Source of the DNA: Gammaproteobacteria bacterium | GTDB lineage: Bacteria; Pseudomonadota; Gammaproteobacteria; GCA-001735895 | DNA length: 64,000 bases | Assembly: GCA_050298595.1 (NCBI GenBank) | Contig: JBNKUM010000024.1 | Coordinates: 32,001 to 96,000, forward strand | Direction: 5' to 3' | Part shown: positions 38,429 to 51,987 of the stretch, one piece after another | How the letters are laid out: each line of letters starts with the position of its first letter | Position numbering within the stretch: position 1 is the first letter of the stretch | Program-made: the position numbers and the translations under genes | The notes under the pieces: generated by a model | Told to the model about the DNA's origin: nothing | Seen by the model: only the letters and a program-made list of their open reading frames with translations | Database searches by the model: none

Positions 38429-39880
38429 TCAGGCTGGGCTAATTTCAAAAACCTTTTCCGAAGGCAGTCGAACCAGAGTGATATCAATGATGGTGGTGCG
38501 AAAACTTTGCAATATCGCTTTGATATCATCCGAACTGAGATGCAGGTTCATAGGTACATAGCTGATGTCACTAGATTCGGCTTCGAGGCCGGTAATTTCC
38601 ACATCCATTTCTGCAATATCGGCTAGCTGATCTTTCCAGATTTTTTTACTCTTATCGAATTTTTGTGTTCTTAGATAAAAGGTTATCGAGCCTTTGTCTT
38701 TTTCATGTGTATGCTGGTCTTCTATCATCTTCTCCAGCCTGGGCTGATCCTTATTTTTCGGCTTTGAATTGAAGCGCACATCGAAATGGTCTACGGCTTT
38801 TCCAAACTGATCTTTTAGACGAAAAATAAGTTGCGCATGGCCTTCATACTGCTGTTGTTTATCCCACTCAAAAATATTTGATTTTAATTTGGCCGCACGT
38901 TCAAAGGTTTTGTCCATTGCCTTCTGGTATTGCTCTACTGTCTTCTGATAATAGATGCTCCCGGATTTGGTATTTAGCCCCTGCTTGATAAGAGGCATCA
39001 CAGCAGCACGGTTTTTACTTCCACTCACGATGCCGATATCATCTCCAAAATGAGCAGTTTCATAAGCCACAGCAAAAGGCACCTGTGCTCGATTCTGGCT
39101 TAAACAGCTTAGGTCGTAGTCATAATTAATATCTTGAAACTGTTTGTCATCCAGGCGTTTGTTGATCAGCGTTTTCAATGCCCTCACTCCTAGCTTAAAA
39201 GCACGAGGTTTCGGTTTCACTGAGATGTAGTTAAAGTTCAGGTTACCCGCACTGGTTCGTACCGTATTGTCGGCAGAGTCTTCCTTCACATACCGAATGG
39301 GTATAGGGCGTAAAATACTGAGCGTTTGCGAGCCAATAATACAGAATTCCTGAACCTGGTAATCATTCAACATATCGTTCCCAGGTTGTAAGAAATGCAG
39401 ATGCATATCCAGAGTCTTCCATGAGCCGAATTCCAGCTCATCTAAAACCTGAGTGCCACGACCAGTTCCCGTGAAAATAAGTCTCCCCCAGCGTGACAAC
39501 TGACCTTTACCGATATGTGCCAGGCCACTGCCAAAATTCGCTCCTGCCAGATGAATGAGATTATTGACGGGTGAAGGTTTGGGACTAAATTTACTAATCC
39601 AGTTGCGCACCACCAATGCACCGGTACTGTGAATGATGACATGGAAGCCATTCTTCAGTAGATCCGGATGATCAGCCTTGAGAGCCCTGTCCATGGCAAA
39701 ACTGACATCGTCCAGAGAGACACCATCACTGAGCGATATCCAGCGACTGAGGTTGATCTCTTTTACATTATCCCTGCCATAAAGTTTACGTAGCTCTGCA
39801 GGTAGAGAGCCATAGATATCTTTTGCTTTGGTATCTTTGCCCTCTGATGAATAACCGTGAATTAAGAGTATGGGATCCAT
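38429..39880 (-). CDS. Alpha/beta-hydrolase (lipase/esterase-like) with C-terminal extension
   Basis: Oxyanion LIHGYS, nucleophile elbow IIHSTGAL, LAGANFGS, DNTVR. Start moved to ATG 39880, which has an AGGAG RBS. Confidence 0.8.
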   Translation of the reverse strand: MDPILLIHGYSSEGKDTKAKDIYGSLPAELRKLYGRDNVKEINLSRWISLSDGVSLDDVSFAMDRALKADHPDLLKNGFHVIIHSTGALVVRNWISKFSPKPSPVNNLIHLAGANFGSGLAHIGKGQLSRWGRLIFTGTGRGTQVLDELEFGSWKTLDMHLHFLQPGNDMLNDYQVQEFCIIGSQTLSILRPIPIRYVKEDSADNTVRTSAGNLNFNYISVKPKPRAFKLGVRALKTLINKRLDDKQFQDINYDYDLSCLSQNRAQVPFAVAYETAHFGDDIGIVSGSKNRAAVMPLIKQGLNTKSGSIYYQKTVEQYQKAMDKTFERAAKLKSNIFEWDKQQQYEGHAQLIFRLKDQFGKAVDHFDVRFNSKPKNKDQPRLEKMIEDQHTHEKDKGSITFYLRTQKFDKSKKIWKDQLADIAEMDVEITGLEAESSDISYVPMNLHLSSDDIKAILQSFRTTIIDITLVRLPSEKVFEISPA

Positions 39881-40105
39881 GCTTGCTCCTTTATTTTTTG
39901 AGTTAGTTCTGGAAAGCGGCAGGTTTTTCCTCGTATCAGAGGACAAAATATACTCCTGTTTCCATCACTCTGAAACCCCCTAATAGTAGAGATATAATTT
40001 GCAACAATCTGGTACTGATCTCTGGCTATCATCAGCACTTCACAACAAACCTTATAAACTTCATATGATTCCAGCTCCATGGCAGCTCTGATCTGTATAT
40101 TCTGT

Positions 40106-40178
40106 CTCTGCGAGACTGAAGCATACGGATCCCGGAGTGCAACGCCGAAGATATGAGCTTCAGGCCTCTCCAACGGGG
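40106..40178 (+). ncRNA. Candidate structured RNA resembling a degenerate glycine-riboswitch aptamer
   Basis: CTCTG-CGAGA...CGCCGAAG...CTTCAGGC...CGGGG with pairable arms; not tested against a covariance model. Confidence 0.3.
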
Positions 40179-40376
40179 CTTACAGGTTTAGCTACTCGTC
40201 TTTGTGAGTTGACTGGATACTCGAATCAAACTTATCTACGGTACTGGAAAAAATAGAATAAATTTTTCAGGCTATCCATGGTTAGTCTTATCGGCTAAAG
40301 TTATGCAGGTATATTAGGCAGCCTGTAGTTAATATAAAGACAGGCACTCGATAAAAAAGAATCCAACACGGAAACC

Positions 40377-41036
40377 ATGGATAACAATTCTTTGTACACG
40401 CCACCCACTGCCGATCTGAAAACTGCTCAGGAACTACCTGTAAACTACAGCAGCAGTGCTTTAACCGCCTCCAGACTAAAACTTCTTGGGTGGCTATTTG
40501 TTATGGACTTTATCCTGACAATACCTCTGACAGGATTCGATGTCATGAGCGGAACGACAGAGGCCCTTGACCCATACAAAAATATCATCCAGATACTATC
40601 TTTGCTAAGCACCTTCATCTGGTCCTACCTGATGATTATGTTCAGAAAATTCCTCAACCTGAGGTTTGAATTTTATAGAGTAGATTTACTCATTAATATA
40701 CTGATCTTTATATCCATAATGATGGGGATCATTCCTTTTGCCTCGTTAAATGAAGAAATTATTGCGGGTATTAAACTCGAAAGTTTAATCGTTTTCACAT
40801 TACTTCTGCCTTATGGACTGGTGACATTCCTGAGCGGAAAACGCCTGTTAACTATAGCCGACCGATTTCCTTACCTGAAAGGATTCTCGTGGTTAAGTAT
40901 GATATCCGGTATCTTAACAACGAGTATCGTATTATTTGTATTCTCTATCCCTCTATATATCGTGATGGAGCTTTTCATAGCTCTGATATTTTTTGAAGCT
41001 GCGCGTGAACGCCGCGAGTGGCAGGCTGTTCAATAG
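40377..41036 (+). CDS. Hypothetical multi-pass membrane protein with N-terminal SLYTPPTADL motif
   Basis: About 6 hydrophobic segments; 219 aa. Confidence 0.75.
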   Translation: MDNNSLYTPPTADLKTAQELPVNYSSSALTASRLKLLGWLFVMDFILTIPLTGFDVMSGTTEALDPYKNIIQILSLLSTFIWSYLMIMFRKFLNLRFEFYRVDLLINILIFISIMMGIIPFASLNEEIIAGIKLESLIVFTLLLPYGLVTFLSGKRLLTIADRFPYLKGFSWLSMISGILTTSIVLFVFSIPLYIVMELFIALIFFEAARERREWQAVQ

Positions 41037-41075
41037 AGCCGTCTAAAAAATAATTCTTTAAACCGAGCAACAAGA

Positions 41076-41105
41076 ATAGATAACGCCGAATTCGACGCTA
41101 TCTAT
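41076..41105. terminator. 30-bp near-palindrome between convergent genes
   Basis: ATAGATAACGCCGAATTCGACGCTATCTAT; both mismatches are G.U pairs on the minus-strand RNA. Confidence 0.6.
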
Positions 41106-41167
41106 CCTCATCAATTTACTAAAGTTGAAAAAATGCTTTAACGCTTAATCATTAATAATCAGCGGTC

Positions 41168-41698
41168 TTATATATTACTGATTGCAGGTATTGCGACTGC
41201 AGCAACAATTCCGATCAAAGAAATGATAGGAAAAAACAACCCGAGGATTTTCACCCCCATAGGATTTTCATTAGGAGCAGCACCATAATCATTAACACCA
41301 TCGGTACCCGCCCCAAAAACCATATACAGCGTAAGTAGAAGATTAGCTAGCGGTACTATAAACAACAGCATCCACCAACCGCTGCGATTCAAATCATTCA
41401 TCCTGCGCTTACCAAACGTAAAGACTATTACCAGCAGCGCAATATAGACCACAGCCATAATAATAACCGCAAACACTGGCATGTCTGGCATGCCAGATTC
41501 GCCTGCACTCATGCCTCCAACGAGAGCCATAATGGGGATAGCTATAGCGGCAAGCACCAGATAGACGCCGGTAAGATAGGCCAGATAACGTAAGCGTCCG
41601 ATACGTCCGCTAAAGCTAAAGACAGTGGGTTGGTAGGTTTCATCCATATCAACAGCCAGAGATGCATCGGGGGTAGTATAGGGGTTTTGATCAGTCAT
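41168..41698 (-). CDS. DUF805 family membrane protein with N-terminal NPYTTPDASL motif
   Basis: FSFSGRIGRLRY, KRRMNDLNRSGWW, GTDGVNDYG. Confidence 0.88.
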   Translation of the reverse strand: MTDQNPYTTPDASLAVDMDETYQPTVFSFSGRIGRLRYLAYLTGVYLVLAAIAIPIMALVGGMSAGESGMPDMPVFAVIIMAVVYIALLVIVFTFGKRRMNDLNRSGWWMLLFIVPLANLLLTLYMVFGAGTDGVNDYGAAPNENPMGVKILGLFFPIISLIGIVAAVAIPAISNI

Positions 41699-41816
41699 AA
41701 AAGAGTCCTTGTTTTGTTAAAATTTCCGAATATTTTTTCGATTGCGCTCAAAAAAGTGCAGCCCATATTTAAAATATTCCAGCTACAGGAAGATAGCAAA
41801 AGACAGCATGTTTTGC

Positions 41817-43145
41817 TTAAAATATTCCGCTTCTTTTTAGTGCCATATATTCAGTCACCAAAGCCGAATGCATGGTCGAAGGCAAGGTGTCAACCACTAT
41901 CACATTATCGGATCTTAGCTCGGTTAGCATGGCTGCCTGTTTTTGTTGATGATTAACTGCACCGCAAAAGCTCAATGCATCACCCAGGGATATGACTTCC
42001 ATCTCCTGCGCATCACGAATAACCTGCTGGCGCATACTCGCCACTATGACCAGATGATGACGTGACAATAGGCGCACGGCCTGGGTAAGATCGTCTTTAT
42101 CTTCCGGCTCTAGCGAAGAGATTAATATCACCAGAGATCTTTTACTGTGCCGACTAATCAATTGCTGACTGACATCAATAAAATCGCTGGTTTCGATTGA
42201 GCTATCCAGGTCATAGATTTGTTCCAGCAACTGCGCGATCTGTCCACGGCCTTTAACCGGAGGAATCCATCGAGCCTGTCCGGCAAAACTCAACAGGCCA
42301 ATGCCATCCCCCTGGCGCAGCGCGATAAATGCTGATAGCAATAATGCATTCAAAGCATGATCAAAATGGCTAATATCCCCCTCTCTCGCACGCATGCGTC
42401 GCCCACAATCGAGCATGAAAATAATCTGCTGATCTTTTTCTTCCTGATATTCTCGCGAGATAGGACGATGAAATCTCGCGCTTGCCCGCCAGTCAATCTG
42501 GCGTAAGGAATCACCCTCACGAAAATCCCTTAACTGATAAAAATCAGTGCCTTCACCACGGCGCTGATTCAGATGAACACCAAGGTCTGCATACAACTGT
42601 TCACTATTAATCACCGATGAACGAAACAGGGGTTTGTAATTGGGATACACCTTGCTTTGTTGCGGCTGAGCATAATAGAAATTCTTTTCCCAAAGCTGCA
42701 TACGCGAGATAACCCGGCAACACACCTTTGAGAATTCGGCAGGTCCACGTCGGATAGCCGTGACATAATATCGCACATCAGCGAATTCTCCTGGCTTGAT
42801 ATCCAGCTTCACGGGTAGGCCCTGAATCTGCAATTGTGCAGGCGGGCTATCACTGACTGCCAGTTGAATAGGATGCCCCGATTGATTGCTAACACGCAGC
42901 TTAACCGCCTGCTTTACTCCTAGCGCCAGATGCGGTTCCAGACTGCGCTCCACCGTCAACTGAGGTCGAACGCGTAGCGCAAGGTAATCTATCAGGCTGA
43001 GAACCATCAGCAGCATAAGATAGCCCCAGAAAACAAACCTTATCTCCGCAGCAAATGGCCACTGCAGAATATTAGCAATTACGCTAATCAGAGCAATCAC
43101 CAGCCACAACAGGGCCAGCTTAATCAGCTTGACGGCAGGTCTCAT
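41817..43145 (-). CDS. DUF58 / vWA-like MoxR partner with N-terminal TMs
   Basis: GEGTDFYQLRDFREGDSLRQIDWRASAR, REYQEE, LDCGRRM, GDGIGL. Confidence 0.9.
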   Translation of the reverse strand: MRPAVKLIKLALLWLVIALISVIANILQWPFAAEIRFVFWGYLMLLMVLSLIDYLALRVRPQLTVERSLEPHLALGVKQAVKLRVSNQSGHPIQLAVSDSPPAQLQIQGLPVKLDIKPGEFADVRYYVTAIRRGPAEFSKVCCRVISRMQLWEKNFYYAQPQQSKVYPNYKPLFRSSVINSEQLYADLGVHLNQRRGEGTDFYQLRDFREGDSLRQIDWRASARFHRPISREYQEEKDQQIIFMLDCGRRMRAREGDISHFDHALNALLLSAFIALRQGDGIGLLSFAGQARWIPPVKGRGQIAQLLEQIYDLDSSIETSDFIDVSQQLISRHSKRSLVILISSLEPEDKDDLTQAVRLLSRHHLVIVASMRQQVIRDAQEMEVISLGDALSFCGAVNHQQKQAAMLTELRSDNVIVVDTLPSTMHSALVTEYMALKRSGIF

Positions 43146-44101
43146 GAACGTGGGGCATTAACCTTTTCAATCAAGCTGCCCAGTACTTCATCAGCATTCA
43201 ATCCATCAATCTCCACTTCAGGAGAAAGTATGATGCGGTGCCGCAGCACCGGCAGTGCTATAGATTTAACATCATCAGGGGTAACAAAATTATTGCCATG
43301 GATGAGCGCCAAAGCCTTGGCGCAGCGTAATAATGCAATACTTGCACGCGGCCCGGCACCGTGACGCAATAGCGTGGTAGCCCGTGTTTCACGCACCAGG
43401 TTAACGGCATACTCGGCTACCCGCTGATCAACCTCTACCTGGCTACAATACTGCTGAGCAGTCACCATATCTATCAGACTGGCTTTAGTTTCCTCAACCC
43501 TGGCAATTGACTTCGCCGCATAGCGAGTTGCCAGTATCACCTCGTTATCGAGTGAGGGATAGTCGATTTTTATCTTGATAATAAAACGATCCAGCTCGGC
43601 CTCGGGTAAAGCATAAGTACCTTCCTGCTCGATTGGATTTTGTGTGGCCAACACCATAAAGGGGTGATCAATCGACAAAGATTGACCATCCAGAGTGACC
43701 TGATATTCCTGCATCACTTCCAGTAACGAGGCCTGTGTTTTAGCGGGTGCCCGGTTTATTTCATCGGCCAGTAATAGATTGGTGAATATTGGCCCGCGTT
43801 TAAGCACAAACTTACTCTTTGCCATATCGAACATCACATGCCCGGTGACATCGCCTGGCATCAGGTCAGGGGTAAATTGTATTCGTTTAAAAGCGGCACC
43901 TATACCTGATGCGAATGCCTGCACCAGAAGGGTTTTACCCAGCCCAGGTACACCCTCTATCAGTACATGCCCCCCTGCCAGCATCGCAATCAATACCTGA
44001 TCAACGACATTCGACTGTCCGATTAATCTCTGGTTGACATGCTCCTTTAGCGCAGCCAGCGAGGCAGAGATGGTTTCCAGAGAAGCGCTTGTATCATTCA
44101 T
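43142..44101 (-). CDS. MoxR family AAA+ ATPase
   Basis: EGVPGLGKT, RIQFTPDLMPGD, LLADEINRAPAKTQ, ATQNPIEQEGTY.LPEAELDRF. Confidence 0.95.
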   Translation of the reverse strand: MNDTSASLETISASLAALKEHVNQRLIGQSNVVDQVLIAMLAGGHVLIEGVPGLGKTLLVQAFASGIGAAFKRIQFTPDLMPGDVTGHVMFDMAKSKFVLKRGPIFTNLLLADEINRAPAKTQASLLEVMQEYQVTLDGQSLSIDHPFMVLATQNPIEQEGTYALPEAELDRFIIKIKIDYPSLDNEVILATRYAAKSIARVEETKASLIDMVTAQQYCSQVEVDQRVAEYAVNLVRETRATTLLRHGAGPRASIALLRCAKALALIHGNNFVTPDDVKSIALPVLRHRIILSPEVEIDGLNADEVLGSLIEKVNAPRS

Positions 44102-45372
44102 AATAAATTCTCAATTTGTTTTAATAATCGCACCGTCTGTACGAATGTGAGTTCATTGTGTTGTGTTGAATTAAATGCCTTTTCCACTGTTTTTAAATCT
44201 AGCCCACAGCGTTGACTGATAAGCTGCAACTTATCGTCCATTACACTGGCGCGGTTAATAACTGGATAGGCGAGCGCGGCGCGCCGCATCACTTTATTGC
44301 GCAACGGTGTTAACAGATGTGCGCTCGCTTTACGGTGCCATAAATAGTTAGCGGTCGCAGCAAAATGCACGCCCAGAGAGCGCGCAGCAGCAGGATTACT
44401 GATTTCTATACGCCCAAAACGATGACTTAGATGCCAGAGTAATAGCGATACCAGCAGCGCCAGAGCAATCAGAAATTCACTTGCGGAATCAACTGCCAGA
44501 GCCCACAGACTCGGTCTATCCAGCGGCTTGAAAAGAGCGATATCACCATCCTTGGAAATCAGCATCCACAGTAGAAAAGCATGGTCAAACTGATGAATAC
44601 GCCGGGAAGTCCAGATACCTGGATCGGAGAGTATGGTTAGCAGCCCATCACCCACTTCAAACTGCATCATATGAACCCCATGTTCAGATGAGCTCCAGCT
44701 AAAAGGCCGGGATTCCAGTTCATCTTCCTGATCACTGTTAAAAGCGGGATGGGTTAAAACCTTTTGCGCATTAAAGGCTATTTCCAGTACGCCAATCTCG
44801 TCACCAAAATCTACTTCAGTCATCAGTCCATCATCAGCAAACGACTGGGCAATTTCTTCGGGTGTCATACCCTGGTCAATTTTTTCATTATATTCGCGCA
44901 TTAGATCGCTTAAGGACTTATCCTTGTTATTGTTGTTTTCTCCATCAGCAGTATCCTTATCAGACTGTTCTTCCTGATACCACTCCACCCCTACATCGAA
45001 CCTGTCCAGCAACAGATCACCTTCCTGTGATACAGAACTCGCAGCAACAATCAGATTACCGCCCTGCTCCAGCCACTCCAGCACCTTTTCCAGCTGGCGT
45101 GGATTGGCCACCTGATTAACATCGGTAATCATTACCGTGCTCACGCCTTCCAGCTGATCCAGTCGCATCAGGCTTTCTGCCTGTTTCACCTCAACACCCG
45201 CCTGTTGCAGGAAATACTGCGCGGCCAGATAGGGATTAGTCAATGCCTCGGTTGACCAGGGTGTTTTTTCGTTTTCCTGATAAAACTCGATATTGGAATA
45301 AATCTGCCAGGCCAACACTCCAGCAAGGCCTAACAGCAGCAGAGCTTTCACATGAAGATTAATCGATGGCAT
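44098..45372 (-). CDS. DUF4350 domain membrane-anchored protein
   Basis: N-terminal TM, NPYLAA, WLEQGGNLIV, second TM followed by RFG; position in the MoxR operon. Start moved to ATG 45372. Confidence 0.75.
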   Translation of the reverse strand: MPSINLHVKALLLLGLAGVLAWQIYSNIEFYQENEKTPWSTEALTNPYLAAQYFLQQAGVEVKQAESLMRLDQLEGVSTVMITDVNQVANPRQLEKVLEWLEQGGNLIVAASSVSQEGDLLLDRFDVGVEWYQEEQSDKDTADGENNNNKDKSLSDLMREYNEKIDQGMTPEEIAQSFADDGLMTEVDFGDEIGVLEIAFNAQKVLTHPAFNSDQEDELESRPFSWSSSEHGVHMMQFEVGDGLLTILSDPGIWTSRRIHQFDHAFLLWMLISKDGDIALFKPLDRPSLWALAVDSASEFLIALALLVSLLLWHLSHRFGRIEISNPAAARSLGVHFAATANYLWHRKASAHLLTPLRNKVMRRAALAYPVINRASVMDDKLQLISQRCGLDLKTVEKAFNSTQHNELTFVQTVRLLKQIENLL

Positions 45373-46873
45373 TAGACATCTCTCTGGACCAGGTTTTGCA
45401 CAGTGCCTCAATCAACTGTGTACTTGGCAGCCGATGTCCATAAGCCAGGTTACACCAGGCAACAGTGATTTGCTCAAAGTACTGACTCAAGGACTGCACA
45501 CCCTGTTTTTTTACCAACGCCGCACATTCTGCTTCGGTGTGGCTAGGCTTGAATGTTAACTCATACTGCTCGATCAGGTGCGACAATGCTGCACGATACA
45601 GTAGTCCTAATGATTCTCGATGCTGGCCGCTATTCCACAGCTGCATAACCTGGCTCGGGACATCTTCGGGCAAGCTATCCGGGGTCACATCAAGACCAAA
45701 CATAACCTCTGGTTTATTGATACTACGTTTGACCGGTTTCAGGCTTGAGAGTGGCCCGCGATAGCGATACAACAGATATCCCAGCAGGCAAACAAACACA
45801 ATAATAAGAATGATCTTGATCCAGACAGCAGGGGAAAATAGTCTGTCTTCATGATCATTGTGAGCAGACCAGTCGAAGTTGGCTAAAAACCAGTCGACCA
45901 GATCAATCATCCACTGTGGAATCTTATCCTTATTTTCTTCAACCACATTTTTAAAGCGCCATTTTTCTACACTTACCTCGCGACCAAAATCTTCTCCCTT
46001 GAGGATTTCATTAATGGTTTCGCTGGCAGTTTTCCGATCATAATTATCTACGGCATAACTGCTGGAAGGTGTACCCGACAGTAGCAGGGTCAACAGCATG
46101 GCCGCAAGCATCAACCCACTGAGCTTAGCTGTTGAGCTCTGTTTACGAGCTACCAGATTGCGAAAAGTAATCTCTATATCCCAGGCTTCCAGCTCGATAC
46201 GACGATTCAGATAAAGCGCAAATCCAGCCATTGAATAAAATGGCATCACAGCGAAGATCGCAGTAAATGCGCACAGTGTATACAGCCATTTCCCAATCAG
46301 GGTTAATTTATTGGCTGAGTCATAAATTTCGAGCCCGAAATCATCCGGCACAAAAAAAAGTATGCCTGAGAACAGACCCAGGCAAACGATCAATTCGAAC
46401 ATAAAACAGATAATCTGATTACTAAACGCAATGTCGATGCTTTTACCGTGTAATACGCTAAGACGTTGCTTACGTGGCTTACCCTTTAGCCCTTCAAGTA
46501 CAGTGACCGGGGCGCTATAAGCACGCTGCAATGAAAACCTGCGCCATAGCAGCCAGGCCAGCACATCGTTAAAATAAACCGATTTTATCTTCGCCAGCAC
46601 CTCATACAGCGTTATCTGTTCGCCGAAGATTCTCCGACTGCTGAAGTAAAGCGGTAAGCGTTCCCAGAACGGTTTTAACCACCAGATAATGAAAAGTGCA
46701 ATAAAGGGTTGGTCAAAAAAGAGGATTGATAACGGAATGAATACAGTCAGTGCAGGCAATAGCCCGCACAACAGCAGCGTCAGCCACCAGGCACGCGCCA
46801 TCAAAAAACCCAGATCCAGTGCCTGCCAGCCCGATCTTACATTGGCCCCTATTTCTAACTTATCCAGGTTCAA
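45359..46873 (-). CDS. DUF4129 domain membrane protein
   Basis: RSGWQALDLG, WWLKP, YLNRRIELEAWDIE, LLYRAAL...TEAEC...AYGH. Confidence 0.8.
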   Translation of the reverse strand: MNLDKLEIGANVRSGWQALDLGFLMARAWWLTLLLCGLLPALTVFIPLSILFFDQPFIALFIIWWLKPFWERLPLYFSSRRIFGEQITLYEVLAKIKSVYFNDVLAWLLWRRFSLQRAYSAPVTVLEGLKGKPRKQRLSVLHGKSIDIAFSNQIICFMFELIVCLGLFSGILFFVPDDFGLEIYDSANKLTLIGKWLYTLCAFTAIFAVMPFYSMAGFALYLNRRIELEAWDIEITFRNLVARKQSSTAKLSGLMLAAMLLTLLLSGTPSSSYAVDNYDRKTASETINEILKGEDFGREVSVEKWRFKNVVEENKDKIPQWMIDLVDWFLANFDWSAHNDHEDRLFSPAVWIKIILIIVFVCLLGYLLYRYRGPLSSLKPVKRSINKPEVMFGLDVTPDSLPEDVPSQVMQLWNSGQHRESLGLLYRAALSHLIEQYELTFKPSHTEAECAALVKKQGVQSLSQYFEQITVAWCNLAYGHRLPSTQLIEALCKTWSREMSNAID

Positions 46874-47816
46874 ATCGCTTACCCGACAGACAGTAGATAA
46901 TCACTAGTAACCAGAAAAAACCACCTACGCCATATTTCACGGCTATAGGGATAGTGCTACTTGAAGACCAGAAGGCTTCTAAAAAGGCAGCAATCACCAG
47001 CATCAGGATAATGCCATACAATAAAGGGATAACCTCTAACCCTGCTCTGCGCAAGGCACTCACCCGAGTAAAGGGGCCTGGGTTAATAATTGAATACCCC
47101 AGCCTGAGGCCTGCAGCACCACTGAATACGATGGCGGTTAATTCAAAAGCGCTATGACCGACGACAAAGGGATAAAAAGTATCTATGAAATCAAGCCGAG
47201 TCAGATGCCCAGCCACGCTGCCGATATGTAATCCATTGTAAAAAAGGACCAAAAGAGTCCCAATCCCCGCCATCAAACCACCGGCAAAACAGCGAAAGGC
47301 AATGCTTATATTATTCAGGATATAAAACCCAAACATATAAATATCCGTATCGGACTCGCGTTCACGCCCCAGCTTGACCGCCGAAGCGTCATACATCTGT
47401 TCCAAATGTCGCACATCCTGGGCATCCATGATGCTATATACCGCCACATCATCCAGATAAACCCAGAGCCCGGCTATCAGGCCCGGTAATACAAACACCA
47501 GCAGGGATGCAATGATAAAAAAGCGCTGTTGATAGATAGTATGAGGGAACTGGCGTATCAAAAATGAAAATAGATTCAGGCGTCCGCCCTTCTGGTATCG
47601 ATACAGTTCACGATATAAACGCAACACCAGTTTATTCAAGCGCTCAATTAACGCCGTATCATACAGGCGCTGTTTGGCAAGAGAGAGGTGCTGACACAGC
47701 AGCATATAGTGATCTGAAAGCAGGATGCTGTTGTGCTCGCTGGCGGGTTTATCCAGTGACTTTTCAATCGCTTGCCAGGTTTGCTGATGCTGTTTTTCAA
47801 ACAATTGCTGTTTCAT
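46860..47816 (-). CDS. SpoIIM (DUF95) family membrane protein
   Basis: LCQHLSLA, YILNNISIAF..FAGG, NGLHIG, VVGHSAFELTAI. Start moved to ATG 47816. Confidence 0.88.
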   Translation of the reverse strand: MKQQLFEKQHQQTWQAIEKSLDKPASEHNSILLSDHYMLLCQHLSLAKQRLYDTALIERLNKLVLRLYRELYRYQKGGRLNLFSFLIRQFPHTIYQQRFFIIASLLVFVLPGLIAGLWVYLDDVAVYSIMDAQDVRHLEQMYDASAVKLGRERESDTDIYMFGFYILNNISIAFRCFAGGLMAGIGTLLVLFYNGLHIGSVAGHLTRLDFIDTFYPFVVGHSAFELTAIVFSGAAGLRLGYSIINPGPFTRVSALRRAGLEVIPLLYGIILMLVIAAFLEAFWSSSSTIPIAVKYGVGGFFWLLVIIYCLSGKRFEPG

Positions 47817-47851
47817 GCTAAACACCGTAATTGAATTGCGCGCAGCTTCAT
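47813..47851 (-). other. 12-codon mini-ORF (MKLRAIQLRCLA) linking RDD and SpoIIM
   Basis: Its ATG overlaps the RDD stop (ATGA) and its TGA overlaps the SpoIIM start (ATGA). Confidence 0.4.
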
Positions 47852-48528
47852 TGCACCCCCAGAAACCATGCACCGATGCGGTGTAACTGGGTGACCTTAT
47901 CGTCATCCTTATTATGCGTTATACCATCCAGAATACTGGCAAGTTCCTGTTGGCGCGGATCGGACAGCTGCTGGCTTCTATGCAAAAAATCGACTATGGC
48001 GGTTTGCTCGTTGCGCAGCAGAGCGGTGGGGGGGGGCAGTGGCCGGATATCATTGATACTGGTTGGCCTTGCTGCTTCCTTAACGCTAATCACCAGAGTG
48101 CCTGCTGCCAGGTCGCCCAGACGTTGAAAGCGACCATTAGAAACCATAGTGACTAATCCGGCCAGATAACAGAATGGCAGGAAATCGACACTACGTAGCA
48201 AATTTCTAAGCATTGATGCACCGAAGCTAACCGGTGTTAAGTCATCGTGTACCACGCTGATGCCCATCATCTTTTTACCCGGAGTCTGCCCGCGCCTGAA
48301 CACTTCAAAAATAACGGGATAAAACCACTCGATCAGAAACAGCGTGATATACCAGAAACCAGTGCCAACTCTGCCGAAAGGAATCATCGCCAGAGTCAGG
48401 ATAAAGAGAACAATGCCACGGATCGCAAGATCAATTATAAACGCGAGAAAGCGCGGAATAGGACCGACCAGTTGCGCTTCAAGCTCTATGCCCCCGGGTA
48501 TCTCTGCCCGGTAATTAGTGTCCAACAA
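47848..48528 (-). CDS. RDD family membrane protein
   Basis: RFLAFIID, GQTPGKK, RNLLRSVD, QRLGDLAAGT. Confidence 0.92.
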   Translation of the reverse strand: MLDTNYRAEIPGGIELEAQLVGPIPRFLAFIIDLAIRGIVLFILTLAMIPFGRVGTGFWYITLFLIEWFYPVIFEVFRRGQTPGKKMMGISVVHDDLTPVSFGASMLRNLLRSVDFLPFCYLAGLVTMVSNGRFQRLGDLAAGTLVISVKEAARPTSINDIRPLPPPTALLRNEQTAIVDFLHRSQQLSDPRQQELASILDGITHNKDDDKVTQLHRIGAWFLGVQ

Positions 48529-48540
48529 CGAGAGGCTCTC

Positions 48541-49296
48541 TTATTCCGCCAGCGTGTGGGCTTCAGCGCCAAACAGCTTGATATGGACCATTGACATGGT
48601 AAGCACCGACCAGGGAATAACCCAGATATAGGCTATACCGAGGGTGAAAATCGCCAGTGAATTGACCAGCAGAAGAATCAGCAGCAATCCAAATATTGAA
48701 AACCATTTGCGGGTCAGGGCCTTACGCGAAACCTCCAGCGCCTGCCAGGGGGTCATATTTTTCTCAACAATCAGCGGTAAGGCATACATGTACGCCACCA
48801 TTAAATAGATACCCGGAAGTACAAATAATAATAGCCCCAATATAATCAAAGGAGTCATTATGATATAGCATAAAACCAGTGCTGGAATCTTATGGAAGTA
48901 CTGGAACACCGCACTAGCAGAGCTGGGTTTATTTGCAGCATGCCGAATCCCCATAATATGAATCGCCATGAACATTGGCATGGTTGCAATGCTGGCAACC
49001 ATCTGCAACAGTTGGGCAATGAAAGCGGCAGTATCTTTATCAACACCCAGAGCTGCTACTCCCATGCTAATGGGAATAACGAGTATCGCGACAATAATGG
49101 AGACGATAAAATATAACAGGAAAGCAATATGACAGCGCGTCTTAAAGCCTTTCAGGTTTTTCCAGGCCTCACCCAGAGTACCGGTCATACTGATTTCTAT
49201 ATTTCCAGCAATAGCCTGTTCAGGCGAACCACCGATACGCTCACTAGAGGAAGTATTATCAAGATCAGATTGGGGGGTAGCGTAGATATTGTTCAT
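48541..49296 (-). CDS. Multi-pass membrane protein (DUF975/BPSS1780-like) with N-terminal NIYATPQSDL motif
   Basis: EAW, LLFVLPGIYL, PWQALEVSRK pattern. Start moved to ATG 49296 (GGAG RBS). Ends 12 bp upstream of the RDD gene. Confidence 0.75.
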   Translation of the reverse strand: MNNIYATPQSDLDNTSSSERIGGSPEQAIAGNIEISMTGTLGEAWKNLKGFKTRCHIAFLLYFIVSIIVAILVIPISMGVAALGVDKDTAAFIAQLLQMVASIATMPMFMAIHIMGIRHAANKPSSASAVFQYFHKIPALVLCYIIMTPLIILGLLLFVLPGIYLMVAYMYALPLIVEKNMTPWQALEVSRKALTRKWFSIFGLLLILLLVNSLAIFTLGIAYIWVIPWSVLTMSMVHIKLFGAEAHTLAE

Positions 49297-49450
49297 ACAA
49301 AACTCCATGTATTCATTAAATTTCTATAGCCCGCGCATCCTATAATAATTTCACCCAGACATACAAGCATGATTTTGAACAGTTGATAGGGGCCTGTAAC
49401 ACTGAGGGTAGTCCGTACCCCCCTTTGTTATTTCATCACTTTAGGTATCG

Positions 49451-50017
49451 CTAGAATTTTTTTGTAACATTTAATGCCTGTTTTATCTTATCAATATCCA
49501 GCTTCTCAACCAGAGTGAGTAGCTCTGGGTATATCCGGCCATGATATCCATAACCACCATTTTTCAGTTCGTCTATTGCCTGGGCCTTTGACCAGTTGTT
49601 GAAAATAATTCGGTAAGCGGCAATGGTGACACCCGTTCTATCTGAGCCATGCCAGCAGTGTATTAAGATGGGGCCTTTTCTATTGTTGATAATCTGCATG
49701 GCCTGAATAATCTGCTTCTGGGTGATGGCACCCGTTTGCATTTTAATTCTATGCAGTACAAATTTTTCTTCCCCAATTTCATTTTTATCGCTGTGATACT
49801 CTCTTAAATTCAGCACTTCCTGAATCCCAAGGGCCACCAGGTTATCGATATCATCATCGTCAGGTTGCTCTGACCGATATACACCTTTGTCAACCTGGTA
49901 CAGGTTATCAAGACCCGTTCCAATGATCGGTTTCCCCCAGTCATCAGGTCTTAATCGAGGCTCTGCATCAGCGTTAGCAGAGATAAGCAGTAAAAGAATT
50001 ATCAGGTATCTGGTCAT
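49451..50017 (-). CDS. Exported dual-specificity / tyrosine phosphatase family protein
   Basis: Signal peptide ending ADA; YRSEQP, VLNLR, P-loop HCWHGSDRTG. Confidence 0.88.
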   Translation of the reverse strand: MTRYLIILLLLISANADAEPRLRPDDWGKPIIGTGLDNLYQVDKGVYRSEQPDDDDIDNLVALGIQEVLNLREYHSDKNEIGEEKFVLHRIKMQTGAITQKQIIQAMQIINNRKGPILIHCWHGSDRTGVTIAAYRIIFNNWSKAQAIDELKNGGYGYHGRIYPELLTLVEKLDIDKIKQALNVTKKF

Positions 50018-50187
50018 TTAATTTTTCATTTAAACAGTTTCAGCTGTTACAAACAGGGTAGAGGCTGAAGCCATATTAGCAACATTTTGCATGATGAAAA
50101 GCCCAATGTTCAGGTAAAATCATTATTTACTTTTCAAACCCTGCTGACAGTTAGCTGTTCAGCTTTATGGACTCTAATTAATTTACC

Positions 50188-51987
50188 GTGAATTCTGAAC
50201 AAGCTCATTATCAACCAGTCAGCTGGCAGAAAATCTTTCAACTTGCGCGTAGTCATAAAAAAAATCTTATCCTGGCGCATATCATCGCGATTTTTGCTGC
50301 GATGATTCTGGTGCCAGTGCCGATGCTGATGCCATTGCTGGTGGATGAAGTCCTGCTAAATAAGCCCGGCATCATTGTAGCAACACAAAAAATTATATTT
50401 CCTGAATCCTGGCATGGCCCTGCGTTATTTATTATCAGCATCATGCTGTTCACTATTTTACTACGCCTGATTGGTACCAGCTTATCGGTATGGCAAACGC
50501 GCGAATTCACGCTGGTTTCAAAAGATATTACTTACCAGTTACGAAGCAATCTATTACATCGCCTACAAACCATCTCAATGGCTGAGTACGAGGTTCTGGG
50601 TAGCGGAGCGGTTGCTTCACATCTGGTTACCGATATAGATACTATCGATCAGTTTATCGGTAGTGCTCTGAGTAAATTGCTGGTCGCGATTCTGCTAGTG
50701 ATCGGCATAGCGATTACACTGTTATGGATGCACTGGCAACTGGCTCTGTTTATTCTGATCATGAACCCTGTGGTGATTTACTTCACAACAGTCATGGGTA
50801 AAAAAGTTAAGGAATTAAAGAGGCACGAAAACTCGGCGGTGGAGTTATTTCAGCAATCACTCACCGAAACGCTGGATGCCATCCAGCAGATACGAGCCAG
50901 TAATCGTGAACGCCATTATCTGATGCGCGTGATCGACAAAGCACGTGCTGTGAAGGTTAATTCAGCCAGCTTCAACTGGAAAAGCGATGCCGCCAACCGA
51001 CTGTCTTTCTTTGTGTTTCTAATGGGCTTTGAGGTTTTTCGTGCAGTGAGCATGTTGATGGTGGTGTTTTCCAGTCTGAGTATTGGAGAGATGTTCGCGG
51101 TATACGCTTACCTGTGGTTTATGATGACGCCAGTACAGGAAATACTTGGTATACAATACAGCTATTATTCAGCCAATGCCGCGCTACAGAGACTCAATCG
51201 CATCCTGCAATTAAAACAGGAGCCAGTATATGCACATAAGATCAACCCGTTTGAACATCACAACACCGCCAGCCTGAAGATTGAAGATATCCATTTCGCC
51301 TATGGTAATGGTGACATAGTACTAGATGGGGTTTCGCTGGATATTCGTGCAGGAGAAAAAATTGCCCTGGTCGGTGCCAGCGGTGGTGGCAAATCTACCC
51401 TGGTTCAGGTCATTCTGGGGCTATACCCGCCTGCTCAGGGGCATATCTATTTCAACGATGTGCCAGTTGAGCAAATCGGCCTGGATATCGTCAGAGAGCA
51501 TATAGCCACCGTGCTGCAACACCCTGCGCTATTTAATGACACGATACGCAGCAATCTGACTATGGGCTTATCTCTGAGTGATGACAAGCTGTGGCAGGCG
51601 CTGGAAATTGCTCAGCTTAAAACCACTATAGACGAATTACCCGCCGGGCTAGATACCATCGTTGGTCGCAATGGCATACGTCTGTCTGGCGGTCAGCGTC
51701 AACGCCTGGCCATTGCGCGCATGATTTTAAACGACCCCAAAGTGGTGGTTCTGGATGAAGCGACTTCAGCACTGGATACCCAGACCGAAGAAAGGTTGCA
51801 CAGTGCCATGCAGGACTTTCTTAAGGGCAGAACCACGCTTATCATTGCTCATCGACTCAGTGCTATAAAACAGGCAGACAGGGCCTATGTGTTTGATGGT
51901 GGACAGGTCATAGACGAGGGGCATCACGAAGAGCTGGTGAACCGAGATGGTCTATATCAACAATTATACGGCGAAAGACAACAATAA
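50188..51987 (+). CDS. ABC exporter, fused TMD and NBD (MsbA/ABCB-like)
   Basis: About six TMs; GASGGGKST, LSGGQRQR, LDEATSALD, IAHRLS. Confidence 0.92.
   Translation: MNSEQAHYQPVSWQKIFQLARSHKKNLILAHIIAIFAAMILVPVPMLMPLLVDEVLLNKPGIIVATQKIIFPESWHGPALFIISIMLFTILLRLIGTSLSVWQTREFTLVSKDITYQLRSNLLHRLQTISMAEYEVLGSGAVASHLVTDIDTIDQFIGSALSKLLVAILLVIGIAITLLWMHWQLALFILIMNPVVIYFTTVMGKKVKELKRHENSAVELFQQSLTETLDAIQQIRASNRERHYLMRVIDKARAVKVNSASFNWKSDAANRLSFFVFLMGFEVFRAVSMLMVVFSSLSIGEMFAVYAYLWFMMTPVQEILGIQYSYYSANAALQRLNRILQLKQEPVYAHKINPFEHHNTASLKIEDIHFAYGNGDIVLDGVSLDIRAGEKIALVGASGGGKSTLVQVILGLYPPAQGHIYFNDVPVEQIGLDIVREHIATVLQHPALFNDTIRSNLTMGLSLSDDKLWQALEIAQLKTTIDELPAGLDTIVGRNGIRLSGGQRQRLAIARMILNDPKVVVLDEATSALDTQTEERLHSAMQDFLKGRTTLIIAHRLSAIKQADRAYVFDGGQVIDEGHHEELVNRDGLYQQLYGERQQ

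Follow-up and report, generated by a model that had tools for sequence, protein, structure and literature searches.

Three unrelated membrane proteins encoded in and around an uncharacterized MoxR AAA+ operon, namely a 219-aa orphan, a DUF805 protein and a UPF0259/YciC-like protein, share the N-terminal start x-[PIL]-Y-x-[TP]-P-x-[AS]-[DS]-L. This start, which we refer to as the tag, is a real and conserved short linear motif, and no published description of it was found. In the sampled genomes it occurs almost only where the operon is present, a distribution that suggests a recognition tag for the machine predicted to be encoded by the operon. All positions refer to the window, a stretch of 64,000 nucleotides from a gammaproteobacterial genome.

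The operon of the window and its tagged genes

Six genes lie between the YciC-like and DUF805 genes and were assigned via Pfam to RDD, SpoIIM, DUF4129, DUF4350, MoxR (AAA_3) and DUF58/VWA_2 (Table 1). The YciC-like gene comes first and its product is itself an operon member, the DUF805 gene comes last, both are on the operon strand, and the orphan gene converges on the DUF805 end, just as the original prediction had placed them (one leading the operon, one following it, one converging on it). The MoxR gene belongs to AAA_3 (PF07726) and AAA_lid_2 with 206.1 and 81.6 bits, respectively, while its neighbor scores above threshold for both DUF58 (89.8 bits) and VWA_2 (27.6 bits, cut-off 27). The metal-binding (MIDAS) motif of vWA domains, DxSxS, was not found in this DUF58/vWA-like protein, which has DCGRR there instead (LDCGRRM); in an alignment of 31 operon homologues (A2), D246, G248 and M251 are invariant and R250 is at least 90% conserved. 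The SpoIIM protein (AF2 model, pLDDT 86.5) likely starts at M31 (position 47,816), with tblastn matches beginning at residues 21 to 31, and the RDD protein has a conserved N-terminus of its own, LDTxYxxExPEG[IV]xL. Pfam searches of the operon genes returned neither a protease nor a transpeptidase domain, and no recognizable peptide-binding domain in any operon protein.

Table 1. Genes and tags of the window
Feature	Position	Strand	Evidence or remark
Orphan, 219-aa polytopic membrane protein, tagged	40377..41036	+	ORF; converges on operon end
Tag of orphan, residues 4-14, NSLYTPPTADL	40386..40418	+	homologues keep NS[LI]Y[TK]PP
DUF805 membrane protein, 176 aa, tagged	41168..41698	-	last gene on operon strand, 118 bp past DUF58
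Tag of DUF805 protein, residues 5-14, NPYTTPDASL	41657..41686	-	alignment of homologues
DUF58/vWA-like protein, N-terminal TM hairpin	41817..43145	-	DUF58 1.9e-25, VWA_2 4.8e-6
MoxR AAA+ ATPase (AAA_3 + AAA_lid_2)	43142..44101	-	AAA_3 1.9e-61
DUF4350 membrane protein	44098..45411	-	4.7e-18
Polytopic membrane protein, DUF4129 domain C-terminal	45359..46873	-	6.9e-8
SpoIIM-family membrane protein, three-helix N-terminal extension	46860..47906	-	5e-37
RDD-family membrane protein, untagged	47848..48528	-	1.7e-20
UPF0259/YciC-like (DUF975-type) membrane protein, 251 aa, tagged	48541..49296	-	first gene of operon, ~12 bp before RDD
Tag of YciC-like protein, residues 2-12, NNIYATPQSDL	49261..49293	-	alignment of homologues

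The DUF805 gene belongs to PF05656 (70.4 bits, cut-off 25.7, E 2.2e-19) and adjoins the operon in all five operon-bearing genomes of the genus. In case of the YciC-like protein (AF2 model, pLDDT 83.4), the only Pfam match was GPDPase_memb at 23.7 bits, below the cut-off of 29.6; PF06790 (UPF0259)/PF10110 are the database's precomputed domains for it and most of its homologues, which denotes resemblance, not curated membership. Assignment to the BPSS1780 family (NF041043/DUF7847) was rejected at 25.8 bits against an NCBIfam cut-off of 90, a value exceeded by tagged proteins of other genomes (L050, 205.7 bits; L079, 198.8 bits). An alternative ATG lies upstream at position 49,308, but most homologues begin at MNNIY. 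The orphan has no Pfam or NCBIfam family and is weakly similar to a tagged 215-aa protein (L103) from a genome of another family (E 5e-6).

Conservation and form of the motif

The open reading frames and starts of the three proteins (MDNNSLYTPPTADL, MTDQNPYTTPDASL and MNNIYATPQSDL) are as originally described. A scan of the 5.49 Mb genome (3,193,115 residues in 23,773 six-frame ORFs of at least 60 aa) with the originally proposed consensus yielded exactly three matches, all of them these genes, against a composition-based expectation of 0.018; this test is post hoc because the pattern was derived from those three hits. Two looser whole-genome scans gave 236 and 132 candidates that were inspected by eye. 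They revealed no tag-like N-terminus in the window beyond the three, in line with the original observation, and a single further one in the genome, on contig C76.

Conservation in homologues served as the independent test of the motif. The core Y-x-x-P-x-x-x-[LVIMF], searched within the first 45 residues, was present in 120 of 120 YciC-like and 120 of 120 DUF805 homologues, and the tag could be read in 8 of 9 orphan homologues; in the ninth (P0008), an N-terminally truncated protein, the pattern match was spurious. Loss of the motif from orthologues, which would have spoken against the original prediction, is not what these homologues display. In the YciC-like alignment (A1), Y5 and P8 are invariant and A6 and L12 at least 90% conserved, while in the DUF805 alignment (A4) Y7 and P10 are invariant and N5, P6, A12 and L14 at least 90% conserved. 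Residues directly past the motif are variable in both, and the protein bodies in these two alignments are well conserved, with 45-56% mean column identity. The tag can be written more broadly as [NDS]-[PIVL]-Y-x-[ATP]-P-x-[AS]-x-[LV], in which the tyrosine and proline are invariant. Since codon usage varies among the pattern hits of the census described below, selection acts on the peptide.

The tag of the YciC-like protein is disordered in the AF2 model (residues 1-18 with pLDDT below 50 compared with 83.4 overall). Counts of lysine and arginine place the N-terminal tails of the DUF805 protein (7 versus 1) and the orphan (10 versus 5) on the cytoplasmic side and are tied for the YciC-like protein (7 versus 7), favoring neither side. 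Based on these counts, the tag is probably cytoplasmic.

Distribution of the tag and of the operon

We searched about 800 genomes with a strict degenerate DNA pattern, using chance hits as an internal control, and recovered 22 genuine tagged membrane genes. They fall into DUF805, BPSS1780/DUF7847, UPF0259-like, RDD and DUF4234 proteins and five proteins without a Pfam family, with one to four bearers per genome. Within Gammaproteobacteria, small polytopic inner-membrane proteins from no fewer than five unrelated families carry this one terminal signature.

SpoIIM was the only correlate used for operon presence. In the class sample, 40 strict-pattern hits included 16 genuine N-terminal membrane-protein tags from 15 genomes in 14 families, and SpoIIM was found in 14 of these 15 genomes compared with 43 of 385 others (Fisher p = 2.8e-11 with our own genome left out, a value that, like Fisher values here generally, overstates the association because the genomes are related). 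In the phylum sample, SpoIIM was present in all five new tagged genomes versus 36 of 395 others; four of the five belong to one family, in which SpoIIM occurs in 10 of 10 genomes. In genomes where the only hits were chance, non-gene ones, SpoIIM stayed at its base rate (3/21 and 1/21). The pattern detects the NPY form only (117 of 120 DUF805-type but 6 of 120 YciC-type tags), so that other forms of the tag in operon-free genomes would be missed. The original prediction had proposed such a scan of relatives and had named equal abundance of tagged proteins without the operon as evidence against itself; instead, tag and operon co-occur and the abundances are far from equal.

The distribution of the tag tracks the machinery with one exception, G193, an assembly that is 99% complete in 560 contigs and carries, at the end of one contig, a tagged YciC-like gene, with no match to the SpoIIM protein, the RDD protein of the operon or the DUF4129 protein that served as operon marker in genome searches. 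Contrasts between close relatives point the same way as the census. In eight families, a genome with both tag and operon has a sister with neither. The DUF805 proteins of two operon-free sister genomes (G141 and G341) are tagless, as are two true BPSS1780-family proteins of G363, an operon-free genus-mate of the tagged genome G204. Further, the DUF4234-like gene on contig C76, unlinked to the operon, is tagged in three operon-positive genomes (G000, G010 and G012), while operon-free G004 has only a tagless fused homologue.

Gene order also links tag and operon. The RDD gene lies directly downstream of the YciC-like gene in 29 of 31 related loci (48-88% identity), the remaining two of which stop at a contig edge. 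A tagged DUF805 gene precedes the YciC-like gene in four loci and follows the DUF58 gene in three. Of 19 operon loci from other families, 6 have a tagged gene (DUF805, BPSS1780-like or YciC-like) directly beside the operon and 13 have no tagged neighbor. In G204, two tagged genes stand in tandem ahead of the RDD gene. Among the census genes, 5 of 22 lie within 10 kb of the operon, compared with about 0.8% expected per gene, and 17 of 22 do not adjoin it.

The operon can do without the tag: many operon loci and genomes have no tagged genes, among them 43 SpoIIM-positive genomes of the class sample without a strict-pattern tag. In the phylum-sample census all tags found came from a single class; in another class the tag occurred in 0 of 23 SpoIIM-positive genomes. 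There, UPF0259/GPDPase_memb-like proteins (sub-threshold Pfam hits) adjoin the operon in 4 of 14 loci and are tagless, and the link between this family and the operon is therefore older than the tag.

A candidate recognition handle and its relation to known systems

Gene order, genome co-occurrence and the tagless paralogues of operon-free sisters support the link between tag and operon. Based on this comparative evidence, we lean towards the reading in which the tag, a portable, disordered N-terminal linear motif coupled to the operon, is a recognition handle for the MoxR-driven complex. A cytoplasmic, membrane-proximal part of the machine would bind the tag, and binding would engage the bearers as clients or exchangeable accessory subunits of this assembly or remodeling complex. 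More tentatively, the tag may be the address label of a hitherto unrecognized MoxR-driven system that handles membrane proteins, its Y-x-x-P being read by an operon-encoded receptor, with the RDD-SpoIIM-DUF4129-DUF4350-MoxR-DUF58 machine assembling, remodeling or relocating a defined set of small polytopic membrane proteins. We infer the cytoplasmic location, the direct binding, a receptor among the operon proteins and the fate of the bearers. Of the originally proposed docking or sorting signal, the short linear motif and its tie to the operon have held up, and the docking stays a prediction from sequence.

That the tag is instead read by a factor outside the operon, such as a protease, insertase or scaffold sharing its distribution or pathway, with an indirect link to the operon, appears unlikely. 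Most tagged genes are unlinked to the operon, G193 is tagged with no operon detected, the operon proteins have no Pfam peptide-binding domain, and with SpoIIM as the sole correlate the real partner could be some other gene with a matching distribution. However, tagged genes of three families recur beside the operon in varied positions and in many genome families, as expected if they are functionally coupled to the operon itself, and no alternative partner gene recurred in the mapped flanks, which covered homologues of 12 window proteins and motif-bearing ORFs. It is rather improbable that the tagged proteins are membrane-anchored regulators or adaptors whose peptide acts on the MoxR complex at particular sites by recruiting, gating or inhibiting it, the body being a mere anchor. 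Small and diverse bodies (DUF805, DUF4234, RDD, DUF975-type and orphans), few bearers per genome with the tag as their only common feature, and the many operons without tagged genes, as expected of optional modulators, would fit this role, whereas the conservation of the bodies and the pLDDT of 83 argue for functions of their own. Finally, we very much doubt that tag and operon are functionally unlinked and that the tag is a lineage-restricted N-terminal module, topogenic or acting at translation start for instance, that descent or recombination has spread and that co-occurs with the operon through shared phylogeny or lifestyle: its restriction to one class and the non-independence of kin, with four of five phylum-sample tagged genomes from one always operon-positive family, would agree with this, but the tagged class-sample genomes come from 14 families, eight within-family contrasts exist, the same protein family is tagged only with the operon within one genus (G204 versus G363), chance-hit genomes stay at the base rate, and adjacency recurs in shuffled gene orders.

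Substrates are known for few of the widespread MoxR ATPases and their vWA partners. We know of no substrate for a membrane-embedded MoxR operon of this type and of no function for the large DUF805, UPF0259/BPSS1780, DUF4234 and RDD families. If correct, the address-label reading would define the first client set of any MoxR AAA+ ATPase set by a linear motif and give the first functional handles on DUF805, BPSS1780/UPF0259, DUF4234 and RDD proteins. By naming candidate clients or partners, the link turns both problems into experiments, for which the tag supplies its two invariant residues, Y and P, as targets for mutation and a peptide bait for the receptor; the pattern census with its chance-hit control is scalable to the full set of tagged proteins.

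Dedicated sorting tags such as those of the PEP-CTERM/exosortase, GlyGly-CTERM/rhombosortase and LPXTG/sortase systems were found by co-occurrence with their machinery. The tag resembles them as a short terminal signature on unrelated proteins with several bearers per genome, and, as for exosortase-type tags, its distribution tracks one gene set, beside which some bearers are encoded. In contrast, those tags sit at the C-terminus of exported proteins, contain a TM helix and undergo cleavage by a transpeptidase or protease, whereas the present one lies at the N-terminus, brings no TM helix, probably faces the cytoplasm and marks polytopic membrane proteins, and its gene set is an AAA+/vWA membrane operon without a protease or transpeptidase domain. 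Terminal recognition tags of AAA+ machines are also known from ssrA/ClpXP, N-degrons/ClpS and FtsH, which engages membrane proteins by their free cytoplasmic tails. Here the likeness lies in a disordered and probably cytoplasmic terminal peptide as predicted AAA+ handle, on bearers that may be membrane proteins, and the difference in the operon encoding no protease; to our knowledge, MoxR-class ATPases are not unfoldase-protease pairs. As the tag is kept over long evolutionary distances in stable proteins, assembly or remodeling would fit better than degradation.

RavA-ViaA, CbbQ-CbbO and NorQ-NorD are MoxR-vWA chaperone pairs in which the vWA partner contacts the substrate. The operon is similar in that its MoxR AAA_3 gene adjoins a vWA-type partner (DUF58), and differs in having DCGRR in place of DxSxS and four further membrane proteins; the known pairs each serve one defined enzyme complex and are not known to have a client set defined by a linear motif. 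The Y-x-x-P core in common with eukaryotic YxxP motifs (phosphotyrosine ligands of Crk SH2 domains) is a resemblance of letters only, as the tag has a bacterial cytoplasmic context and extra conserved positions, and its phosphorylation is unsupported. For DUF4350, MoxR and vWA proteins, a 'secretion or membrane remodeling complex' has been predicted, and a SpoIIM-vWA-COG0714 neighborhood was seen in non-sporulating bacteria (Makarova, Galperin and Koonin 2015, PMC5898192). The passages of that paper on this neighborhood describe the same gene arrangement and offer the same kind of prediction for the operon as ours, and make no mention of an N-terminal motif, DUF805 or UPF0259/BPSS1780-type partners; relative to these passages, the tag and its bearers are additions to the prediction.

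The locus and its nine genes

Nine genes lie between 40377 and 49296 of the window, eight on the minus strand and one converging, in a genome (G000) of 5.49 Mb assembled in 119 contigs. Three dissimilar membrane proteins among their products share an N-terminal tag, [NDS]-[PIVL]-Y-x-[ATP]-P-x-[AS]-x-[LV], and the three N-termini and the placement of their genes around a MoxR operon are as described in the original prediction.

Genes of window positions 40377-49296, with order of transcription and the start of each tagged product
Product	Coordinates	Strand	Order	Basis	Start
251-aa membrane protein, UPF0259/YciC-like	48541-49296	-	first		MNNIYATPQSDL
RDD	47848-48528	-	second	Pfam	
SpoIIM family	46860-47906	-	third	Pfam	
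Polytopic protein with DUF4129 at its end	45359-46873	-	fourth	Pfam	
DUF4350	44098-45411	-	fifth	Pfam	
MoxR AAA_3	43142-44101	-	sixth	Pfam	
DUF58/VWA_2	41817-43145	-	seventh	Pfam	
DUF805 protein, 176 aa	41168-41698	-	eighth, last	Pfam	MTDQNPYTTPDASL
Orphan membrane protein, 219 aa, without family	40377-41036	converges on DUF805 end			MDNNSLYTPPTADL

Homologues of the 251-aa protein are labelled UPF0259 (YciC-like) in precomputed annotation; the protein itself scores below threshold for GPDPase_memb (Pfam) and reaches 25.8 bits with the BPSS1780 NCBIfam model (cut-off 90). Protein atlas matches of the orphan were confined to unnamed Pseudomonadota clusters of similar length. Promoter-like sites in 39900-50300 were fewer than the shuffle mean and no terminator-like site was found within the 118-bp DUF58-DUF805 gap; neither scan settles the transcription units. 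A Foldseek search of the PDB with the SpoIIM model gave no match up to the E <= 0.001 limit; ABC-2-type permeases and other transporters scored weakly, with E >= 0.2, and were set aside.

DxSxS is the metal-binding motif of vWA domains, and at its position the DUF58/vWA-like protein carries DCGRR. Across 31 operon homologues D246, G248 and M251 never vary, and R250 is kept in at least 90%. The alignments suggest a non-MIDAS variant that is conserved and peculiar to operons of this type. A 505-aa protein encoded at 38429-39946 (minus strand) shows a weak N-terminal Palm_thioest/alpha-beta-hydrolase match (27.7 bits, cut-off 26.8), the remainder belonging to no family.

Conservation and context of the tag

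When all six-frame ORFs were scanned genome-wide (3.19 million residues), the consensus of the original prediction matched three times, each time in these genes, with 0.018 matches expected. This chance test is post hoc and we relied on conservation instead. Among the matches listed, a Y-x-x-P-x-x-x-[LVIMF] core was present in 120/120 homologues of the 251-aa protein (first 45 residues) and in 120/120 DUF805 homologues, as it was in eight of nine orphan homologues, the ninth being truncated. Tags of the 251-aa homologues take the form [ND][IV]YA[AT]P[EQ][AS][DE]L, with a few showing NPYATPDAxL, the form of the DUF805 protein. In the alignments the Y and P are invariant, the flanking N, P, A and L at least 90% conserved and the next dozen residues variable; at the DNA level, synonymous positions differ freely among pattern matches. 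The AlphaFold2 model of the 251-aa protein has a mean pLDDT of 83.4, with residues 1-18 below 50. Based on this model, the tag looks like a short linear motif, conserved within a disordered tail. Counts of K/R in the loops favour a cytoplasmic N-tail for the DUF805 protein (7 versus 1) and the orphan (10 versus 5) and are tied for the 251-aa protein (crude helix finder), which has four K/R just ahead of its first helix. The tag is thus predicted to lie on the cytoplasmic side.

Other conserved elements are found nearby. DUF805 homologues show a second motif, Y-[QNE]-P, about 15 residues past the tag, with Y22 and P24 (window 41633-41635 and 41627-41629, minus strand) at least 90% conserved, and YciC-like proteins share a GGxIEDAIAGNIE stretch after the tag. 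The N-terminus of the operon's RDD protein, LDTxYxxExPEG, was rejected as a tag and is a separate conserved motif. Also rejected was 'NNYSTPKAEL' on contig C67, since the ORF that contains it, upstream of an etfB-like gene, is spurious, and the HisC-like 'LNTNENPY.PP' and other internal or start-less pattern matches were counted as chance. One such chance match, NPYHAPEADF (L047, G067:C2:42218-42246), stands in a 42-codon frame that has neither a start codon nor a membrane body. Its genome, 88% complete, lacks SpoIIM, and the peptide may be a remnant of a tagged gene.

Association of tagged genes with the operon

We carried out a census of tagged genes in 401 genomes spread across the window's class, using degenerate DNA for the NPY form, NPYx[ASTP]Px[AS]x[LF], which catches 117/120 DUF805-type tags and only 6/120 YciC-type tags. 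The pattern matched 40 times in 36 genomes, compared with about ten matches for a reversed-pattern control. All 40 places were read, and a match was called genuine if a start codon preceded it by no more than 20 codons and two or more TM helices were predicted after it. Sixteen matches qualified (15 genomes, 14 families), the other 24 being internal to soluble proteins or without a gene. SpoIIM (PF01944) was above cut-off in 57 of the 400 scored genomes (G260 was unscored; the unpublished G051 is included as a positive without tag): 14 of the 15 tagged genomes carried it, versus 43 of the 385 others (Fisher p = 2.8e-11, own genome excluded, related genomes not being independent). As an internal control, SpoIIM occurred in 3/21 genomes with non-gene pattern matches, which is the base rate. 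A wider sample of 401 genomes of the phylum, 42 with SpoIIM, added genuine tags on six genes, spread over five new genomes that each have SpoIIM, as against 1/21 chance-match genomes; four of these five belong to one always-operon family and this sample therefore adds less. Co-occurrence of motif and operon, which the original prediction had put forward as a check, was thus observed in both samples. It contradicts our own first expectation, which we had considered rather probable, that small membrane proteins would show the motif generally, with or without any tie to MoxR.

By Pfam and NCBIfam, the genuine bearers of both samples comprise eight BPSS1780/DUF7847 proteins, three UPF0259/DUF975/GPDPase_memb-like proteins, two each of DUF805, RDD and DUF4234 (one of the DUF4234 pair weak), and five without family.

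Paired contrasts are available in eight families of the class sample, each between a tagged genome with the operon and a sister in which both are missing (G322/G155, G358/G198, G314/G141, G309/G132, G179/G342, G204/G363, G162/G329 and G176/G341). These sisters, together with G354 and G331, were searched to see if the bearer families themselves or just their tags are missing. DUF805 is present in G141 and G341 minus the N-terminal extension, and G363, a congener of G204, encodes two true members of the BPSS1780 family (156 and 137 bits), which start 7-8 residues ahead of the family domain and lack the tag. Two weaker matches (L152, L153) are likewise tagless; L154, read out of frame, and L155 are not counted. 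The window's own genome holds a fourth tagged gene, DUF4234-like (G000:C76:106595-107188; L092 6596-7188; start MTNAPYKTPSAEL), 46 kb from a second MoxR. It is tagged in two operon-bearing genomes (G012, G010). In the operon-less G004 the sole homologous segment is tagless and forms part of an ORF of about 1000 aa, as is also the case in the operon-bearing G011. The C76 gene lies in frame behind a 200-aa upstream ORF and is split, its frame stopping after about 100 aa and the C-terminal part lying in another ORF (L092 6946-7188). Its copies in G012 and G010 are intact (about 210 aa). The C76 gene is either a frameshifted pseudogene or an assembly error.

The association extends to gene order. 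Within the genus, five of 12 genomes have the operon marker; the DUF805 gene adjoins it in 5/5, the YciC-like gene in three and the orphan in four, and all three tagged genes are missing from the seven operon-less genomes. The pattern is that of one inherited block and proves little. Relatives of the 251-aa protein are encoded at 37 loci in genome contigs, 31 of them close (48-88% identity). At 29 of these 31, RDD follows within about 15 bp and the remaining operon genes come next as far as the contig allows, the other two loci stopping at a contig edge; the YciC-like gene is therefore the operon's first gene in that clade. Beside the operon, a tagged DUF805 gene occurs at 7/31 close loci in two positions, upstream of the YciC-like gene (L007, L008, L010, L013) or downstream of DUF58 (L005, L006, L009). 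Paraglaciecola has two distant relatives of the 251-aa protein (25-28% identity) with neither operon nor motif.

All 19 SpoIIM loci fetched from the class sample show the order RDD-SpoIIM-DUF4129-(DUF4350)-MoxR-DUF58. A tagged membrane gene abuts the operon at six of them, and a tagged neighbour was not seen at 13. The six neighbours are a YciC-like gene (G164), DUF805 genes with variant tags (NQYQAPQSQV in G294, NQYATPQSNL in G263, NPYQAPAADV in G176) and BPSS1780-like genes directly upstream of RDD (G358) or convergent past DUF58 (G162). G204 has the order DUF805 (TDPYAAPLGDL), BPSS1780-like (NPYQAPAAAL), RDD. In G672, 6 kb separate a tagged DUF805 gene from SpoIIM, and a tagged paralogue of RDD is 2.5 Mb away. 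Overall, the operon is no more than 10 kb away for five of the 22 census genes, with about 0.8% expected for each, and 17 lie elsewhere or on other contigs.

A second, divergent MoxR (34-37% identity to the operon's) is found on the opposite strand upstream of the operon in several uncultured Gammaproteobacteria, about 9 kb from the YciC-like gene in L016, L019, L029 and L031 and about 3 kb in L030/L072; at L072 it adjoins a DUF58-like fragment. Directly upstream of the window's YciC-like gene, 49451-50017 (minus strand) encodes a tyrosine/dual-specificity phosphatase family protein. As a candidate tag-modifying enzyme it was set aside: its N-terminal signal peptide predicts export, and the gene has this position at no loci but the two closest, L005 and L006.

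Some genomes depart from the association. In G193, which is 99% complete in 560 contigs, a contig end truncates a tagged YciC-like gene, and searches for SpoIIM, for the RDD of the operon and for the DUF4129 protein gave no match. Many operon-bearing genomes lack a strict-pattern tag, and no genuine tag turned up among the 23 genomes with SpoIIM that represent the other class in the phylum sample. Fourteen operons fetched from that class run DUF4129-like, DUF4350-like, MoxR, DUF58, SpoIIM, RDD, and four adjoin a tagless UPF0259/GPDPase_memb-like protein of 7-8 TM helices (sub-threshold scores). The partnership of the UPF0259/GPDPase_memb-like family with the operon is thus older and wider than the tag and, judging from these gene contents, the operon's machine does not depend on it. 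At the RDD end of one other-class operon (L136 7052-8803, minus strand), two tandem 8-TM paralogues of 264 and 310 aa without Pfam family share the N-terminus KQPLGVGA[IL]IS[DE]TFS[IV].

A putative recognition tag

Comparative genomics supports a link between tag and operon. The bearers follow the operon in presence, absence and position, and the tag is their only common feature. It lies within about 25-55 residues of the first TM helix, a short distance that would hold it near the cytoplasmic face of the membrane. The simplest reading is a putative recognition handle, to which a cytoplasmic part of the machine close to the membrane would bind, the bearers being clients, exchangeable subunits or modulators. 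The original prediction had likewise proposed a docking or sorting signal marking clients or subunits of a membrane AAA+ complex, and we lean slightly towards a recognition tag of the operon's machine. Candidate receptors would be MoxR itself, the DUF4129 domain, the cytoplasmic Ig/vWA part of DUF58, the RDD and DUF4350 tails and, in the SpoIIM homologue, an N-domain of three helices. One joint complex prediction, with alignments supplied, placed residues 1-36 of the DUF805 protein with three partners (DUF58 60-442, SpoIIM and residues 345-504 of the DUF4129 protein). Its score, 0.00 where the mark is 0.32 and without controls, counts neither for nor against binding. With DCGRR in place of DxSxS, a classic MIDAS contact with the tag's conserved D/E is unlikely. 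The operon has no protease domain (Pfam) and degradation is therefore ranked below assembly or remodelling.

Makarova, Galperin and Koonin (PMC5898192) described how, in bacteria that do not sporulate, SpoIIM homologues are encoded beside a COG0714 AAA+ ATPase and a vWA protein, and predicted a secretion or membrane-remodelling complex for DUF4350, MoxR and vWA. A transcriptome study of Burkholderia mentions BPSS1780 without a mechanism (PMC7998038). Full-text searches on the motif and the families, supplements and subscription journals being outside them, returned nothing on an N-terminal tag, and 'PYxxP'-type motifs only in eukaryotic phosphotyrosine papers.

Terminal sorting signals have been paired with their machinery through co-occurrence, and terminal tags exist for AAA+ machines. 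The tag described here resembles both in kind, and differs from both in its position, topology, bearers and machinery.
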